Assembly: GCA_016931055.1 (NCBI GenBank)
Contig: JAFGFL010000050.1
Coordinates: 1,535-65,534, forward strand
Reading direction: 5' to 3'
From: Candidatus Omnitrophota bacterium
Lineage (GTDB): Bacteria; Omnitrophota; Gorgyraeia; Zapsychrales; Zapsychraceae
DNA: 64,000 nucleotides
Shown here: positions 28,045 to 55,441 of the stretch, one piece after another
Numbering within the stretch: the stretch's first letter is position 1
Layout of the letters: every line of letters begins with the position of its first letter
The notes under the pieces: model-generated
The model's database searches: none
Seen by the model: only the letters and a program-made list of their open reading frames with translations
What the model was told of the DNA's origin: nothing
Made by a program: the position numbers and the translations under genes

Positions 28045-28068
28045 ATCCGCCTCTCTCTTAAAAGGATT

Positions 28069-28163
28069 TCCCTCCCCCTTGTGGGGAGGGTTAGGGTGGG
28101 GGGTACAATTCCTGTCGCGTTATTTCTTACCCTCCCCTAACCCCTCCCATAAAGGGAGGGGAA
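28069..28163. repeat. Inverted pair of G/C-tract hairpin repeats (CCCTCCCC...GGGGAGGG type)
   Basis: Copy A is at 28069-28105 (TCCCTCCCCCTTGTGGGGAGGGTTAGGGTGGGGGGTA). Copy B is at 28128-28163, and its reverse complement is TTCCCCTCCCTTTATGGGAGGGGTTAGGGGAGGGTA. They are separated by 22 bp. Confidence 0.7.
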
Positions 28164-49181: not shown

Positions 49182-50570
<1,389 letters not shown>

Positions 50571-50607
50571 TTACATCATAGGTGAATCATCTCCTTTTCC
50601 CTCCTTT

Positions 50608-50702
50608 CAACAAATAACCCCGAGGCTAAAAAAATAACCACGGGGTCATGATTTTTTAGCACTTTGTTAAGGCAGCTGCAATACATCCCAAATCGGTCTG
50701 CC
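50608..50702 (-). ncRNA. Candidate small-RNA/leader unit B (conserved 42-nt box + hairpin)
   Basis: Box C1 is at 50652-50694. Downstream on the minus strand a 9-bp hairpin (ACCCCGTGG...CCTCGGGGT, one mismatch) is followed by TATTTGTTG. A weak TTAGAA-18-TATAAC promoter lies at 50709-50738. Confidence 0.25.
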
Positions 50703-50784
50703 GGATAAGTTATAAAGTTCAATCCCAAGCTTTTCTAAATAATGGTAGCTTTGGGACCTTTTGGTTCCGCTGACGCTCCACCAA

Positions 50785-50879
50785 AAGGAAAAGCCCGTGC
50801 CAAAAAGCACGGGCTTTAACAACTTCCTACGCTTTTTAGCACATTTGTTAAGCGGAGCAATACGCTTCAAATCACCGCT
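50785..50879 (-). ncRNA. Candidate small RNA unit A (promoter + conserved 42-nt box + intrinsic terminator)
   Basis: TTGACA-16-TACATT promoter at 50886-50913. Box C2 is at 50832-50873. The terminator GCCCGTGC-tttttg-GCACGGGC + TTTTCCTTTT lies at 50783-50814. Confidence 0.3.
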
Positions 50880-50944
50880 GATGCTAATGTAGCATATTTC
50901 CTGTAAATGTCAAAAAATATTTTCCTCCTGAAAACCCGGAATGA

Positions 50945-52312
50945 TTATTCTATTTCAGGAAAATGCATGATCTGGTCTAAACTTTCATCCAGTTTTTTCT
51001 GCGGAAGCTCGTATTTGGTCAATTCCCCGTTTAAGTATTTTTCGTATCCGAGCAAATCCAGCAAACCGTGGCCGCTGTAATTAAAGAGGATCACTTTCTT
51101 TTTGCCCTCTTCACGCGCCTTAATGGCTTCATCAATAGCCGCCGCAATAGCATGACTTGTCTCCGGCGCGCAGACAAAGCCTTCAGTCCTCGCCCAAGTC
51201 AGGGCGGCGTCAAAACATCTCAGCTGATCGTACGCCCGCGCCTTAATGAGCCCCTCGCAAACCGCGTGGCTGACTAACGGCGACATCCCGTGGTAACGCA
51301 AGCCTCCGGCATGGATCGGTTCCGGGATGAACTTGTGACCTAACGTGTACATCGCCAAAAGCGGCGTCATGCCGGCAATATCGCCATGGTCATAGCGGTA
51401 TGCGCCTCGCGTTAAACTCGGGCAGGCCGTCGGTTCGGTGCCGATAATCTCCATCGATTTCCCGTGGATCTTATCGCAGACAAAGGGAAAGGACAGGCCG
51501 GCAAAATTGCTGCCGCCGCCGGCGCACCCGATCACGACATCAGGCTGGCTTTCCTTAAACTTCTTAAGCTGTTTTTTGGCCTCTAATCCGATGATGGTTT
51601 GATGGAGCATCACATGGTTTAGAACGCTTCCCAAAGAATAGCGGGTCTCTCCCGATGGATCCGAAACCGCCTGCTCTATGGCCTCGCTGATCGCGATCCC
51701 CAGACTGCCTGGCGTATCAGGCATTTCTTTGAGAATCTTGCGCCCTGCCTCTGTCTCATTGCTGGGGCTCGAGACGCAATTCCCGCCCCAAACGCGCATG
51801 AGCGTTTTGCGGAAAGGCTTCTGCTCATAACTCACCCTCACCATGAACACCTTGCATTCAAGTCCTACTAAATGGCACGCGAAGGCCAAAGCGCTGCCCC
51901 ACTGCCCTGCCCCGGTTTCCGTCGTCAATCGTTTGATGCCGAACTGTTTATTGTACCAGGCTTGCGCGACCGCCGTATTGGGCTTGTGGCTTCCAGCCGG
52001 TGAAACGCTTTCATCTTTGTAATAAATCCTGGCCGGAGTTTTCAAATGCTTCTCCAGGTACACGGCGCGGCGCAGCGGCGTCGGCCGCCAGCGATAAAGG
52101 ATCTCCAGGATCTCCTCTGGGATATCTATCCAACGCTCTTGTGAAACTTCCTGTTCGATAATGTTCATCGGAAAGACCGGGGCCAGCTGATCGGGGCTTA
52201 TCGGTTTTCCATCCGGCCCCAACGGCTGCCTTAAAGGACGCTTCAAATCCGCGACAAGGTTGTACCATTGTTTTGGGATCTCATCCCGGCTTAAATAAAC
52301 TTTGTTGTCCAT
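50945..52312 (-). CDS. TrpB2-type (TrpB-like) PLP-dependent enzyme
   Basis: 455 aa with the long TrpB2-type N-terminus ([13 protein letters not shown]), the PLP-Lys motif GSHKPNTA and GGGSNFAG. Confidence 0.85.
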
Positions 52313-52338
52313 AATGATCCTTTCCTTGAATAAAGGGA

Positions 52339-52389
52339 ATAAAGGGGACAGCGCCCTTTTCTTTGTAAAAAGGGCGCTGTCCCCTTTAT
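52339..52389. repeat. Perfect 22-bp stem hairpin (GGGGACAGCGCCC type), probable terminator/REP-like element
   Basis: ATAAAGGGGACAGCGCCCTTTT-ctttgta-AAAAGGGCGCTGTCCCCTTTAT, starting immediately after the DUF1846 stop codon. Confidence 0.7.
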
Positions 52390-53952
52390 CTACCGGCCTT
52401 TGCAGCTTTCGTAGAAGCCGTGGGTCGAGAAATTCGGGTCGCTCGTTAAATTCACTCCCAGATGGCGCAGCCCGGCCTCGTCGCCAAGCGTCGGGATATG
52501 CGTCATGTGAAGTTCGCAGCCCCGCAGTTCGCTCAATTTCTCCAGGGCCATTTGCGCCGCCGAATTCGTCGTGGCACTGATGGCCAAACTGATTAAAGCC
52601 TCTTCCAAGTTCAAACTCACGGCTTTCTGATCGTAATTATTTTTTTTGAACTTCGAGACAGATTCAATCGTAATAGGCGACAATAAGTGAATGTTATCGG
52701 GAATCCCGGATAAGTCCTTGATCACATTCAACACAAGGCTTGAGACCGCGTGCATCAAAGGGGAATTCTTGCCTGTGATGATCCGGCCGTCATGCAGTTC
52801 GACCGCGGCGCCGCAGTAAATGCCTTCGTTCCCTTTGCCGCATTTTTCTGCTTCCCTTGCCGCGTTTCGCGCCGGTTCCACGACTTTCCTGTCCTCAGGT
52901 TTGACCCCCATTTCCTCCATGATCAGTTCGGCGCGCTGGACCGTTTCCTTGTCCGTCAAACCCATCGCGTACTCACAGGCGTACCGGAAATATCTCCGGA
53001 TGGATTCTTGTCTTGCGGCCTCCTTGACCACTTCATCATCGACGATACCGAAGCCCGCCCGGTTGACCCCCATATCCGTGGGAGACTGATAGCCCGATTT
53101 CTCCCCCGTGATCTTTTCCAATATCCTTCTGAGGACCGGAAAGATCTCAACATCGCGGTTGTAATTGACCGCGGTTTCCCCGTAAGCCTCCAAATGGAAA
53201 GAATCAATCATATTGAAATCGCGGATGTCCGCGGTCGCGGATTCATAAGCGATATTGACCGGATGCTTAAGCGGCAGGTTCCAAATGGGAAAAGTCTCGA
53301 ACTTGGCGTAACCGGATTCTTTCCCCTGCCGGTGATCATGATAAAGCTGGGAAAGGCATGTGGCCAGCTTGCCGCTTCCCGGCCCCGGCCCTGTCACAAT
53401 GACAAGAGGGTTCTTTGTCTGGATATACGCGTTGGCGCCGTATCCTTCATCGCTGACGATGATATCGATATCCGTCGGATACCCTTTCGTGTAACGGTGC
53501 GTGTAGACCTTCACATTCTGGCGCTCCAGTTTATTCTTGAAGATGACGGCCGAAGGCTGGTTGTCAAAGCGCGTGATCACGACCGCCGTTACAAGGATGC
53601 CCCAGTCCCCCAAATCATCGATGAGCTTCATCGCGTCCACATCATACGTAATGCCGAAGTCCGCCCTGATCTTGCGCCTTTCGATATCGCCGGCGTAAAT
53701 GCAGAGGAGGATATCTGCCTGGTCTTTCAACTGCTGAAGGAGTTTCATTTTGACGTTTGGATCAAAACCCGGCAAAACCCTGGAAGCATGATAATCAAAA
53801 AGCAGTTTCCCGCCGAATTCAAGATACAGTTTATTGTCAAACTGGTTGACGCGTTTTAAGATCTCTTCCGTCTGTTCTTTGAGATATTTTTCGTTATCGA
53901 ACCCGATTTTCCTTATCTTCGCGTTCTTCTTTTCAACAGCAGAGACAGCCAT
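52390..53952 (-). CDS. DUF1846 (UPF0371) family protein
   Basis: Start taken at [27 protein letters not shown] (ATG 53952); 520 aa, consistent with the family length. The track ORF to 54273 overlaps the upstream gene. Confidence 0.7.
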
Positions 53953-53992
53953 CAAGCTTTCCTTTCCTTTCCTTTCCTTATCATGTGCAGTT

Positions 53993-55441
53993 TTATACCA
54001 TGCACTTCTCTTGGGATTCTTGTGTTGTCTTGGACAATTTTGATGAAGGGCATTCTCCGTTCCAACAATACAAACACAGCTTTTCACGCGGCAGCCCGAT
54101 CGCTTCGACCATATCATCGATCGTTTGATACCGCAAGGTCGTCGCCTCGATGTCCCGCTCGATCCACTTGACCATCTTCTTGTATTTTTCGGAATTTTGG
54201 TCCAGATATTCCGAGACATCCTCAATGTCTTTTCCCTCCAAGGCCCTGATCGCCTTTCGCGCGGCCAATTCATCCGCGCTTCTCGTTGAAAGGCAGAACT
54301 TACACGGGAACATCAACGGCGGGCAGGCCGGGCGGACATGGACCTCTTTGGCCCCGGCGTTCCAAAGTTTCTTGACAGTGAAGTTCTTTAGCTGTGTTCC
54401 CCTGACGATCGAATCTTCGCAGACAACGATCCTGTTGCCGGCAATGATATCATCGATGGGGATCAATTTCATCGTCGCGACGAAATCCCGCGTTTCCTGG
54501 CTCGGCGGCGTATAGCTTCGGCCGTAACCGGGCGTGTATTTGATAAGCGGGCGCCTGTAGGGTTTCTTGGACTCCATGGCGTATCCGATCGCGTGGGCCG
54601 TCCCGGAATCGGGGACACCTGACACGATATCGACTCCGATATCTTTATCTTTTTTCGCCAACGCCCTGCCGCAACGTTCCCTGACCGTCTCGACGTTGAC
54701 CCCTTCATAAACCGACGCCGGGAATCCCGTATAGATCCACAAAAAGGAACATATCTGTTGATGGTCCATGCCCTTGCGCCTGACAGCCATGCCGCTCTCG
54801 TTCAAAAGGATGATCTCTCCCGGCCTTAAGAATTTCTCGATCTTGAAACCGAGATTCGGCAAGGCATTGCTTTCCGAGGCAACGACCCAATCGCCGTCCT
54901 TTTTGCCAATCACGAGCGGTGTGTACCCCCAACGGTCACGGGCCGCGTAAATACCGTCTTGATTAAGGATCAAAAGCGAGCAGGAACCCTCGATCGCATC
55001 AAACATCTTCTCGATGCCGTCAATGATGTTATCCCCCAAGCTGATCAGTTTGGCAATCAGTTCTGTCGCATTCACCCCTCCGCGGCTGACCTCACTGAAA
55101 GAAATATCCTTCTTGAAAAGACCGGCTTGCAGCTCCTTTGTATTTTCGATAAGGCCGGCTGTCACGATGCAGAAAGGCCCAAACTTGGAATTCAGGTACA
55201 TCGGCTGCTCGTCGAAATCGCTGATGGCGCCTATGCCCTTGTTGCCCTCCATGTGCCGGTGGTCCTCGTAGAACTTCGACTTGAACTGGCTCTGGCTGAT
55301 ATTGTGGATCTGCCGGTTGAATTTTTTCCCCAGGACAACCATGCCGCCGTACTCCGTGCCCAAATGCGAATGATAATCGACACCGTAAAACAGCGTCTCG
55401 ATACAATCCTTTTTTGATACCGCACCGAATATTCCGCTCAT
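53993..55441 (-). CDS. Amidophosphoribosyltransferase (PurF)-like protein lacking the N-terminal Cys nucleophile
   Basis: Start MSGIFGAV (codon 2 is AGC, not TGC). PRTase motif IVVCEDSIVRGTQLK. Cys cluster-like CPPLMFPCKFC. The HRG of canonical PurF is replaced (YHSHLGTEYGG). The track ORF extension to 55528 is encoded by the repeat array. Confidence 0.7.
   Translation of the reverse strand: MSGIFGAVSKKDCIETLFYGVDYHSHLGTEYGGMVVLGKKFNRQIHNISQSQFKSKFYEDHRHMEGNKGIGAISDFDEQPMYLNSKFGPFCIVTAGLIENTKELQAGLFKKDISFSEVSRGGVNATELIAKLISLGDNIIDGIEKMFDAIEGSCSLLILNQDGIYAARDRWGYTPLVIGKKDGDWVVASESNALPNLGFKIEKFLRPGEIILLNESGMAVRRKGMDHQQICSFLWIYTGFPASVYEGVNVETVRERCGRALAKKDKDIGVDIVSGVPDSGTAHAIGYAMESKKPYRRPLIKYTPGYGRSYTPPSQETRDFVATMKLIPIDDIIAGNRIVVCEDSIVRGTQLKNFTVKKLWNAGAKEVHVRPACPPLMFPCKFCLSTRSADELAARKAIRALEGKDIEDVSEYLDQNSEKYKKMVKWIERDIEATTLRYQTIDDMVEAIGLPREKLCLYCWNGECPSSKLSKTTQESQEKCMV

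Follow-up and report, generated by a model that had tools for sequence, protein, structure and literature searches.

Two very probable tandem SAM-II riboswitches in the metY leader of an Omnitrophota bacterium, with transcription termination as the predicted mechanism

In a transcriptional OFF switch, the ligand holds the tail of the aptamer in a pseudoknot, and the terminator is left free to form. The SAM-II class of riboswitches, corresponding to the Rfam models RF00521 (SAM_alpha) and RF01726 (SAM-II long-loop), was reportedly described by Corbino et al. in 2005, and its structure (PDB 2QWY) is said to have been determined by Gilbert et al. in 2008. Many SAM-II aptamers precede terminators (PMC9373788), and the SAM-II riboswitch of S. 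meliloti metZ gives rise, on termination, to an RNA of about 100 nt, named RZ (Scheuer et al. 2022, PMC9373788). Arrangements in series are also on record: tandem SAM-II riboswitches have been reported in 44 cases, in some of which every unit has a terminator, and have been read as pseudo-cooperative (Sherlock et al. 2022, PMC9481103), and in 'Candidatus Pelagibacter ubique' a SAM-II unit, working through a terminator, is followed by a SAM-V unit, which controls translation (Poiata et al. 2009; PMC11508383).

In this work, we describe a locus of comparable organization, located upstream of metY in an Omnitrophota metagenome-assembled genome (MAG). With the SAM-II class it shares the core GAUUUG/UUGC/A-rich linker/GCUAAA, a helix P1 enclosing the loop, a putative pseudoknot between loop and tail and a methionine-biosynthesis gene downstream; it departs from the class in helix P1, which reads GCGG/CCGC or GGCAG/CUGCC instead of the nearly universal GUGG/CCAC, in a linker, UUAACAAA, containing a C, in scores lying 10-14 bits under the Rfam gathering threshold, and in its host. 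As in S. meliloti metZ, a gene for a homoserine-ester sulfhydrylase lies downstream, transcription termination is predicted, and the length of the terminated RNA is similar, about 97 nt for unit 1 against about 100 nt; the metZ switch, however, is a single, experimentally supported unit of an alphaproteobacterium, whereas two units are predicted here. The tandems of Sherlock et al. (PMC9481103) likewise combine two SAM-II aptamers in a single leader, with an intrinsic terminator after each, but our locus differs from them in its long spacer, 80 nt from the end of terminator 1 to the start of aptamer 2, and in the relic Shine-Dalgarno sequence (SD) and mini-ORF and the promoter-like block found between unit 2 and the gene. 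With the Pelagibacter tandem it has in common two putative SAM-sensing pseudoknot aptamers in series before a sulfur-metabolism gene; in contrast to the two mechanisms combined there, both units are of the SAM-II type and both have terminators. The tandem arrangement is in itself ordinary and already described in kind; standard annotation misses the present copies. In the literature searched, no mention was found of SAM-II together with Omnitrophica or Omnitrophota, which is weak evidence and concerns novelty of distribution only.

The analysed features, listed in Table 1, lie in a 476-nt spacer separating metY from a gene for a TrpB-like PLP enzyme. Exact look-ups of the window's own metY and trpB2 products retrieved no protein; the host was assigned from an NCBI protein that shares 100% identity with MetY and is named as coming from a Candidatus Omnitrophica MAG. 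The nearest homologues of MetY are also found in Omnitrophica/Omnitrophota MAGs. The earlier note on this DNA had pointed out two boxes of about 40 nt, 180 nt apart, on the minus strand of this spacer. They were recovered by a repeat finder, as sub-blocks of 17 nt with 76% identity and of 13 nt with 92% identity lying 179-180 nt apart, and by pattern counts within the window, by which we mean the whole 64-kb stretch of DNA analysed: a pattern spanning both boxes matches twice, against 0.00 matches expected from shuffles, and a looser SAM-II core pattern, GATTTG..TTGC..GCTAAA, also twice, against 0.07 expected. A 67-aa ORF (50667-50870), already suspected of being spurious, has no Pfam match and may indeed be dismissed, because its path runs through a terminator and two aptamers.

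Table 1. Features of the metY upstream region, with positions in the window
Feature	Position	Strand	Sequence or assignment	Basis
TrpB-like PLP enzyme gene	50945-52312			flank of the spacer
Promoter P1	50886..50913	-	TTGACA-16-TGcTACATT	consensus scan (10/12 matches + TG extension)
SAM-II aptamer 1 (box C2)	50829..50879	-		RF00521 sub-gathering match + exact core pattern
Box C2	50835-50873	-	GATTTGAAGCGTATTGCTCCGCTTAACAAATGTGCTAAA	
Putative antiterminator 1	50797..50842	-	GUGCUAAAAAGC (50831-50842) with GCUUUUUGGCAC (50797-50808)	inverted repeat + folds
Intrinsic terminator 1 (predicted)	50783..50817	-	AAAGCCCGTGC/GCACGGGCTTT + T run, tail UUUUCCUUUU	terminator scan + fold
SAM-II aptamer 2 (box C1)	50649..50702	-		RF01726 sub-gathering match, covarying P1 + P2a
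Box C1	50654-50694	-	GATTTGGGATGTATTGCAGCTGCCTTAACAAAGTGCTAAAA	
Putative antiterminator 2	50625..50660	-	GCUAAAAAAU (50651-50660) with AUUUUUUUAGC (50625-50635), terminator 2 loop + 3' arm	
Intrinsic terminator 2 (predicted)	50609..50649	-	ACCCCGUGG..CCUCGGGGU + UUAUUUGUUG	fold
Strong SD + relic mini-ORF	50576..50608	-	GAAAGGAGGG; ATG ATT CAC CTA TGA (MIHL)	
Promoter-like block P2	50513..50541	-	TTTTCA-17-TGgTATACT	consensus scan (9/12 matches + TG extension)
metY, putative target gene	49182..50468	-	O-acetylhomoserine sulfhydrylase / homocysteine synthase	TIGR01326 661 bits; NF006096 696 bits (NCBIfam)

At the Rfam gathering score, which is a curated cut-off and no structural feature, no match was found in the whole 64-kb window, and SAM-II matches appear only in the permissive E-value mode. 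In this mode, C1 matches RF01726 with 34 bits (gathering 44), its E-value being 1.1e-4 when the region is searched and 0.012 when the whole window is, and C2 matches RF00521 with 22.3 bits (gathering 36), with an E-value of 0.009 on the 601-nt region and of 0.99 on the whole window, a scale at which C2 alone is not significant. For both boxes, every plausible match is either a SAM-II-class model or SAM-V (RF01826); the latter reaches 19.2 bits on C2 (gathering 41, E 1.7) and is outscored by the SAM-II models. The Rfam match considered in the earlier note is thus missing at gathering level and present below it, C1 being recognized as SAM-II long-loop and C2 as SAM_alpha. The resemblance of the AAAGTGCTAAAAA tail to SAM-II/SAM-V elements, noticed at that stage, is borne out by these sub-gathering SAM-II matches and in the exact core shared by the two copies.

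In both copies, L1 contains GAUUUG, the loop UUGC and the 3' tail GCUAAA, and the linker is rich in A. In aptamer 1, GAUUUG lies at 50868-50873 and AUUGC at 50857-50861, followed by the linker UUAACAAAU and the pseudoknot tail GUGCUAAAAAGCG (50830-50842); in aptamer 2 the same blocks, at 50689-50694 and 50678-50682, are followed by the linker UUAACAAA and the tail GUGCUAAAAAAUCA. These blocks are invariant in 73 aligned homologues, gathering-level SAM-II sequences included, all homologues having been retrieved with patterns containing the same blocks. A degenerate pattern derived from the boxes selected over 120 loci in the genome collection, mostly in classical SAM-II hosts (Rhizobium, Bacteroidota, Fermentibacteria, Gemmatimonadota, Nitrospirota). 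A match at gathering level for RF00521 or RF01726 is held by 8 of 19 loci tested, 16 of which came from the box-pattern scan; examples are Rhizobium, with 81.6 bits, and Sphingobacterium, with 54.7 bits. All Omnitrophota relatives tested fall below gathering for SAM-II. Genuine SAM-II riboswitches that pass this threshold, from Rhizobium, Bacteroidota, Fermentibacteria and Nitrospirota, have exactly the core of the window copies. In nearly all box-pattern loci helix P1 is GUGG/CCAC and the linker consists entirely of A, and it is the substitutions in P1 and linker of the window copies that bring their scores 10-14 bits under gathering. The location upstream of metY provides the methionine-biosynthesis gene context typical of the class. 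Judging from their sequence, the boxes are the cores of two SAM-II aptamers (GAUUUG...UUGC...A-rich linker...GCUAAA) and not novel sRNAs.

Further indications come from the helices. By covariance-model alignment, helix P1 is formed in C2 by AGCGG (50875-50879) with CCGCU (50851-50855), and in C1 by GGCAG (50698-50702) with CUGCC (50671-50675), so that two pairs differ between the copies, both in a fully compensatory manner. Covariation between the copies had not been found previously; it was missed because the 5' strand of P1 sits just upstream of each 42-nt box. In alignment A4, composed of 35 homologues, P1 is 92% paired, a figure inflated by the pre-filtering of these sequences for at least 4 bp of P1; double changes occur at three of the five pairs, and the compensatory pair types, which are unaffected by the filter, are UA/AU/CG at one position, GC/AU at another and of five kinds at a third. 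Controls in slid registers are 29-51% paired. For unit 1, the MFE fold proposes an AAGCG/CGCUU helix instead of the SAM-II P1: this candidate was rejected, being lost in two relatives (L122 and L008) where AGCGG/CCGCU is kept.

In the pseudoknot expected of the class, the short helix P2a joins the loop nucleotides following GAUUUG to those following GCUAAAA, and P2b joins UUGC to GC(U)AA. P2a, formed in C1 by GAU (50685-50687) with AUC (50650-50652), becomes GAC/GUC in L162 and GGC/GCC in L045; over the 7-nt-loop subtype in the 35-sequence alignment, its pairing amounts to 73%, and two of its three pairs show double changes. Alignment A5, containing the 1-nt-spacer subtype, is misaligned around UUGC and was left out of the pair counts. 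P2b can form in both copies and is uninformative for covariation, because it is invariant and fixed by the search pattern. A register-free test of P2a on 115 aptamers resulted in no separation between true and swapped partners (mean helix 3.38 and 3.29, respectively), and is equally uninformative, since 3-bp helices arise by chance.

The signals expected for transcription and its termination were searched for in the same region. The promoter preceding C2, the strong terminator following it and the hairpin following C1, all described in the earlier note, were found again. From promoter P1, whose position is kept in four relatives (L122, L129, L130, L162), transcription is predicted to start near A50879, the first base of helix P1 of aptamer 1. 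Terminator 1 folds with -23.6 kcal/mol (z = -5.5), its stem being 12 bp long, with 7 G-C pairs and a 4-nt loop, according to the terminator scan, and 11 bp long, with a 6-nt loop, if perfect complementarity is required. For terminator 2, the fold is of -21.6 kcal/mol (z = -5.4), with the stem AUGACCCCG.GGUUA / UAGCC.CGGGGUUAU; in the window its U tract is interrupted and overlaps the 3' end of the stem (..GGGGUUAUUUGUUG), and cleaner U runs are found in relatives, such as GGGGTTTTTGTTG in L122 and GGGGTTTTTTGG in L130. The weak promoter proposed upstream of C1, TTAGAA-18-TATAAC, was not confirmed: the consensus scan made no call there, and the sequence is not conserved among relatives. A promoter of its own for unit 2 finds no support in these results, and, no conserved promoter being found before unit 2, both units are best read as parts of one leader.

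In each unit, the 3' tail of the aptamer (GUGCUAAAAA) has its complement within the terminator of the same unit, in the loop and the 3' arm. In unit 1, the partner of the tail, GCUUUUUGGCAC, comprises the top of the 5' arm of terminator 1, the loop and the start of the 3' arm, and the two arms of the putative antiterminator make up a 12-nt inverted repeat, 92% complementary. When the transcript of unit 1 is ended before the terminator is complete, the MFE helix is the antiterminator, 13 bp long; the full transcript folds into the terminator. The duplex has an energy of -19.0 kcal/mol, equalled by none of 300 random segments of the window; only controls from the window are meaningful, those taken within short loci being contaminated by the terminator itself. 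It is kept, with changes preserving the pairing, in L122, L129, L130 and L008 and in about 25 metagenome loci. The corresponding element of unit 2, also formed when the transcript is ended before the complete terminator, is A-U rich and weak, with -8.3 kcal/mol, a value reached by 12 of the 300 random segments (4%); the complementary sequence UUUUUAGC is, however, present in the terminator loop of all unit-2-type relatives having that type of terminator (L122, L130, L162, L160, L164). The pairing of tail and terminator is, as far as folding predictions go, an antiterminator-versus-terminator OFF switch in each unit.

The boxes are conserved in related genomes, a point on which the earlier note had made its reading depend, and the whole architecture recurs, in single as well as tandem form, in other Omnitrophota metY leaders. 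The same tandem array is found in L121-L123, where metY is 88% identical and the upstream gene is a different one, and in L130 (metY 88%), where the linker of unit 1 contains a 45-nt double-hairpin insertion. Two loci, both with metY at 86% identity, have reduced arrays: L129 features unit 1 only, and in L164 truncation has affected unit 1 together with its promoter, unit 2 and the P2 block being intact. In L008, from another Omnitrophota MAG, a single unit lies directly before SD and metY. No riboswitch leader was found upstream of the metY homologues at 79-83% identity (L124-L128). The truncation of unit 1 in L164 and the absence of unit 2 from L129 indicate that the array is evolutionarily unstable.

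A scan of metagenomes for the variant with a GCGG helix P1 produced 33 loci, about 26 of which are real; all the real ones have a terminator complementary to the tail, and many sit directly before metY. Further tandems were identified in L162, L160, L153 and L157, where, as in L122, L130, L129 and L008, the terminators are all complementary to the tail. Homologous units are found upstream of metY in ten loci (L008, L122, L129, L130, L133, L138, L145, L149, L158, L163), in seven of which (L008, L133, L138, L145, L149, L158, L163) the switch is directly followed by SD and metY; in L157 the gene downstream is cysK-like. In six loci (L135, L140, L144, L148, L153, L159), the GCGG variant precedes uncharacterised genes without any Pfam domain.

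Between unit 2 and metY, the window contains additional elements. It is with a decayed mini-ORF, and not with metY, that the SD-like sequence of the earlier note is associated; at the same place, this ORF encodes MNGIAIYQMMC in L122 and MIGVAIYRAM in L130. L164 keeps the SD and has no ATG for the mini-ORF; in L129 the mini-ORF is absent together with unit 2. In L153 and L160 a real, ordinary ORF occupies this position after unit-2-type switches, which makes the mini-ORF of the window look like the remnant of a gene since lost. Closer to metY, the promoter-like block P2 is predicted to start transcription near 50506, some 38 nt ahead of the ATG of metY. Its blocks CTTT[TG]CAT and CTTCTTGNTATACTACA are invariant in the window and in L122, L129, L130 and L164, and are separated by an 8-nt spacer, variable in sequence and constant in length. 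The further hairpin previously noticed before metY (50518-50566) does exist in the window; its structure is not conserved, RNAalifold yielding -1.6 kcal/mol for the region, so that it was rejected as an RNA element and is better explained by the promoter-like block. The position of P2 between the switches and metY implies that, if P2 is active, part of metY transcription may bypass SAM control; metY may thus also be transcribed independently of SAM from this putative promoter.

We regard it as very likely that the metY leader contains two tandem SAM-II riboswitches acting by transcription termination. The evidence consists in the membership of both copies in the SAM-II core, the covariation of P1 and, in the 7-nt-loop subtype, of P2a, the mutually exclusive and conserved pairing of tail and terminator, and the association with metY; SAM binding, the logic of read-through and the co-transcription of the two units we infer by analogy. 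The spacer would correspond to the 5' leader of metY, in which two complete riboswitches follow each other under the common promoter P1. At low SAM, the aptamer tail (GUGCUAAAAA...) would be free to pair, as the polymerase advances, with the hairpin that follows (its loop and 3' arm), and the antiterminator thus formed would block the terminator, letting transcription go on towards metY. At high SAM, the tail would be locked in the pseudoknot/triplex, with P2a and P2b formed with the GAUUU loop, the terminator would form, and the transcript would end at a length of about 97 nt in unit 1 or of about 270 nt in unit 2. With two switches in series, a transcript would have to escape both, so that methionine synthesis should be shut off more tightly and more steeply ("pseudo-cooperatively").

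The earlier note had left the choice between a pair of paralogous sRNAs and one sRNA plus a related cis-regulatory leader (riboswitch or attenuator) for metY. The cis-regulatory part of the second option is borne out, and the spacer is best read as one leader with two complete riboswitches, each with aptamer, antiterminator and terminator. That the units are two independent genes for trans-acting sRNAs, each with its own promoter and terminator, metY being served by P2, is in our opinion very unlikely. An RNA of about 97 nt would indeed be expected to accumulate, given the strong promoter and strong terminator of unit 1, in S. meliloti the terminated products of SAM-II can be detected as sRNAs (PMC9373788), and a conserved promoter-like block is found just upstream of metY. 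However, unit 2 lacks a conserved promoter, no trans target is known, the unit lies directly before SD and metY in other Omnitrophota, with no promoter in between, and the full SAM-II core and conserved antiterminator of both units make sense only with conditional read-through. A related scenario accepts the riboswitches but sees the array as uncoupled from metY by P2, mainly generating small riboswitch RNAs in response to SAM, regulating a micropeptide from the mini-ORF after unit 2, or acting as a tunable promoter upstream, whose read-through or transcriptional interference would modulate P2. We hold it to be unlikely. As regards the tandem type, the two aptamers are of the same class, each with a predicted antiterminator and terminator, the lack of a conserved promoter before unit 2 fits a single transcript, and a promoter-like block separates the array from metY.

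Highly improbable, to our judgement, is that unit 2, SD and mini-ORF constitute a leader-peptide attenuator or a SAM-regulated micropeptide, in which translation of a Met-containing peptide controls metY. The strong SD immediately following terminator 2 would fit, as would the similar peptides of 10-11 aa encoded in L122 and L130, with Met codons in their last three positions; but the ORF of the window is reduced to four codons, its start codon is missing in L164, and L129 lacks it altogether; no conserved alternative structure follows it, and in L153 and L160 its position is occupied by ordinary ORFs, so that it looks like the stump of a lost gene. Since the mini-ORF is truncated or absent in three out of five relatives, a functional leader peptide was rejected as main reading. 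It is, finally, extremely improbable that the aptamers belong to another class or bind another ligand (SAM-V or SAM/SAH-like), or are degenerate, non-binding relics. All models score below gathering, SAM-V has a weak match (19 bits), helix P1 differs from the almost universal GUGG/CCAC, and one unit is decaying in L164; yet the blocks invariant across aligned SAM-II homologues (GAUUUG, UUGC, GCUAAA and the A-rich linker) are intact in both copies, the SAM-II models outscore the SAM-V model, and the changes in P1 are compensatory.

Read as two SAM-II riboswitches in series, the locus provides one more example of serial riboswitches, whose value lies mainly in the correction of annotation, and leaves the current understanding of riboswitches unchanged. 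The expression platform is compact, the terminator loop itself being the predicted antiterminator partner of the ligand-binding tail. Together with the variant P1 helices, GCGG/CCGC and GGCAG/CUGCC, such a platform may be used to widen SAM-II models. In a broader version of the uncoupling scenario, likewise held to be unlikely, the GCGG variant would control the genes without Pfam domains, which could be unrecognised players in SAM or methionine metabolism. Since Rfam at gathering misses both the window and all the relatives tested, SAM control of methionine synthesis in Omnitrophota would go unseen; and the single, double and truncated arrays of the relatives represent, on a small scale, a natural series in which riboswitch units have been gained and lost.

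Among the relatives of the window's metY leader, which carries two serial SAM-II riboswitches (units 1 and 2, each an aptamer followed by a terminator), some contain altered units (see the table). Unit 1 of L130 harbours an insertion of about 45 nt, made of two near-identical hairpins (TCCGCCA..TGGCGGA, twice) and located between the 3' strand of the aptamer-closing P1 helix and the AAAUGUGCUAAAAA tail; the SAM-II linker can therefore accommodate a sizeable structured element. Unit 1 of L164 is truncated: the tail TAATAAATGTGCTAAAAAGCG and its terminator are all that is left, and sequence called as an ORF on the opposite strand stands in place of the 5' half of the aptamer and of the upstream promoter P1. 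Either the locus is genuinely rearranged or the assembly is chimeric here. Variant second aptamers were detected in two further SAM-II loci: L160, in whose unit 2 GAGUUG replaces the otherwise invariant GAUUUG, and L157, where a GCGG-type unit is combined with an alpha-type unit (CUUGCCGCCACGUUAAAUAAAGCGCUAAAGGG), the pair being followed by a short Cys-rich ORF and a cysK-like gene.

Features of the metY region and of related SAM-II loci, with their coordinates
Feature	Window	Strand	Other loci
Promoter-like block	50513-50541	minus	L122 2425-2460; L129 2418-2456; L130 698-735; L164 930-967
SD and mini-ORF	50576-50608	minus	L122 about 2325-2372; L130 about 617-670; L164 about 853-875
Unit 1 with insertion			L130 322-365
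Truncated unit 1			L164 330-560
Variant second aptamer (oriented, after unit 1 match)			L160 +105 to +165
Variant second aptamer (oriented)			L157 +135 to +200
metY	49182-50468	minus	
TrpB-like gene	50945-52312		
Palindromic hairpin	52336-52392		
Palindromic hairpin	28068-28163		

Switches of the GCGG-P1 type, the SAM-II variant with a GCGG/CCGC P1 helix seen in unit 1, were also found on metagenome contigs (L135, L140, L144, L148, L153, L159 and L160), each with a terminator and directly 5' of ORFs of 66-198 aa with no Pfam match. In L153 two related-looking ORFs are preceded by a separate switch each, and one switch of this type precedes a 470-aa protein that has TPR repeats and is Cys-rich in its N-terminal part. 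The ORFs behind these switches are uncharacterised genes that are apparently controlled by SAM.

In the window, as in L129 and L130, the gene immediately 5' of the metY leader encodes the TrpB-like (TrpB2-type) PLP enzyme; in L122 its place is occupied by a divergent MMPL gene. The synteny of a TrpB-like enzyme and homocysteine synthase could point to a function in sulfur amino-acid metabolism. Two long, near-perfect palindromic hairpins were also noted in the window, the one at 52336-52392 lying between trpB2 and the gene at 52390-54273. Each gives hits on either strand to unrelated Rfam hairpin families, at 34-37 bits, far below gathering, and is probably a bidirectional terminator between genes.

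Directly 3' of terminator 2, which ends unit 2, a strong SD (GAAAGGAGGG) is followed by a mini-ORF, encoding MNGIAIYQMMC in L122, MIGVAIYRAM in L130 and MIHL only in the window; the corresponding position in L164 has no ATG. The mini-ORF may encode a regulatory micropeptide, but is probably the remnant of a gene formerly under the control of unit 2.

Closer to metY, about 40-50 nt 5' of its start, a block with the consensus ATC[CT]T[TG]CTTT[TG]CAT-N8-CTTCTTGNTATACTACA is kept in each of the five related leaders against diverging flanking sequence. The block is consistent with a -35/-10 promoter whose -10 element is extended. Such a predicted promoter would permit transcription of metY from a point 3' of the riboswitches, independently of both.
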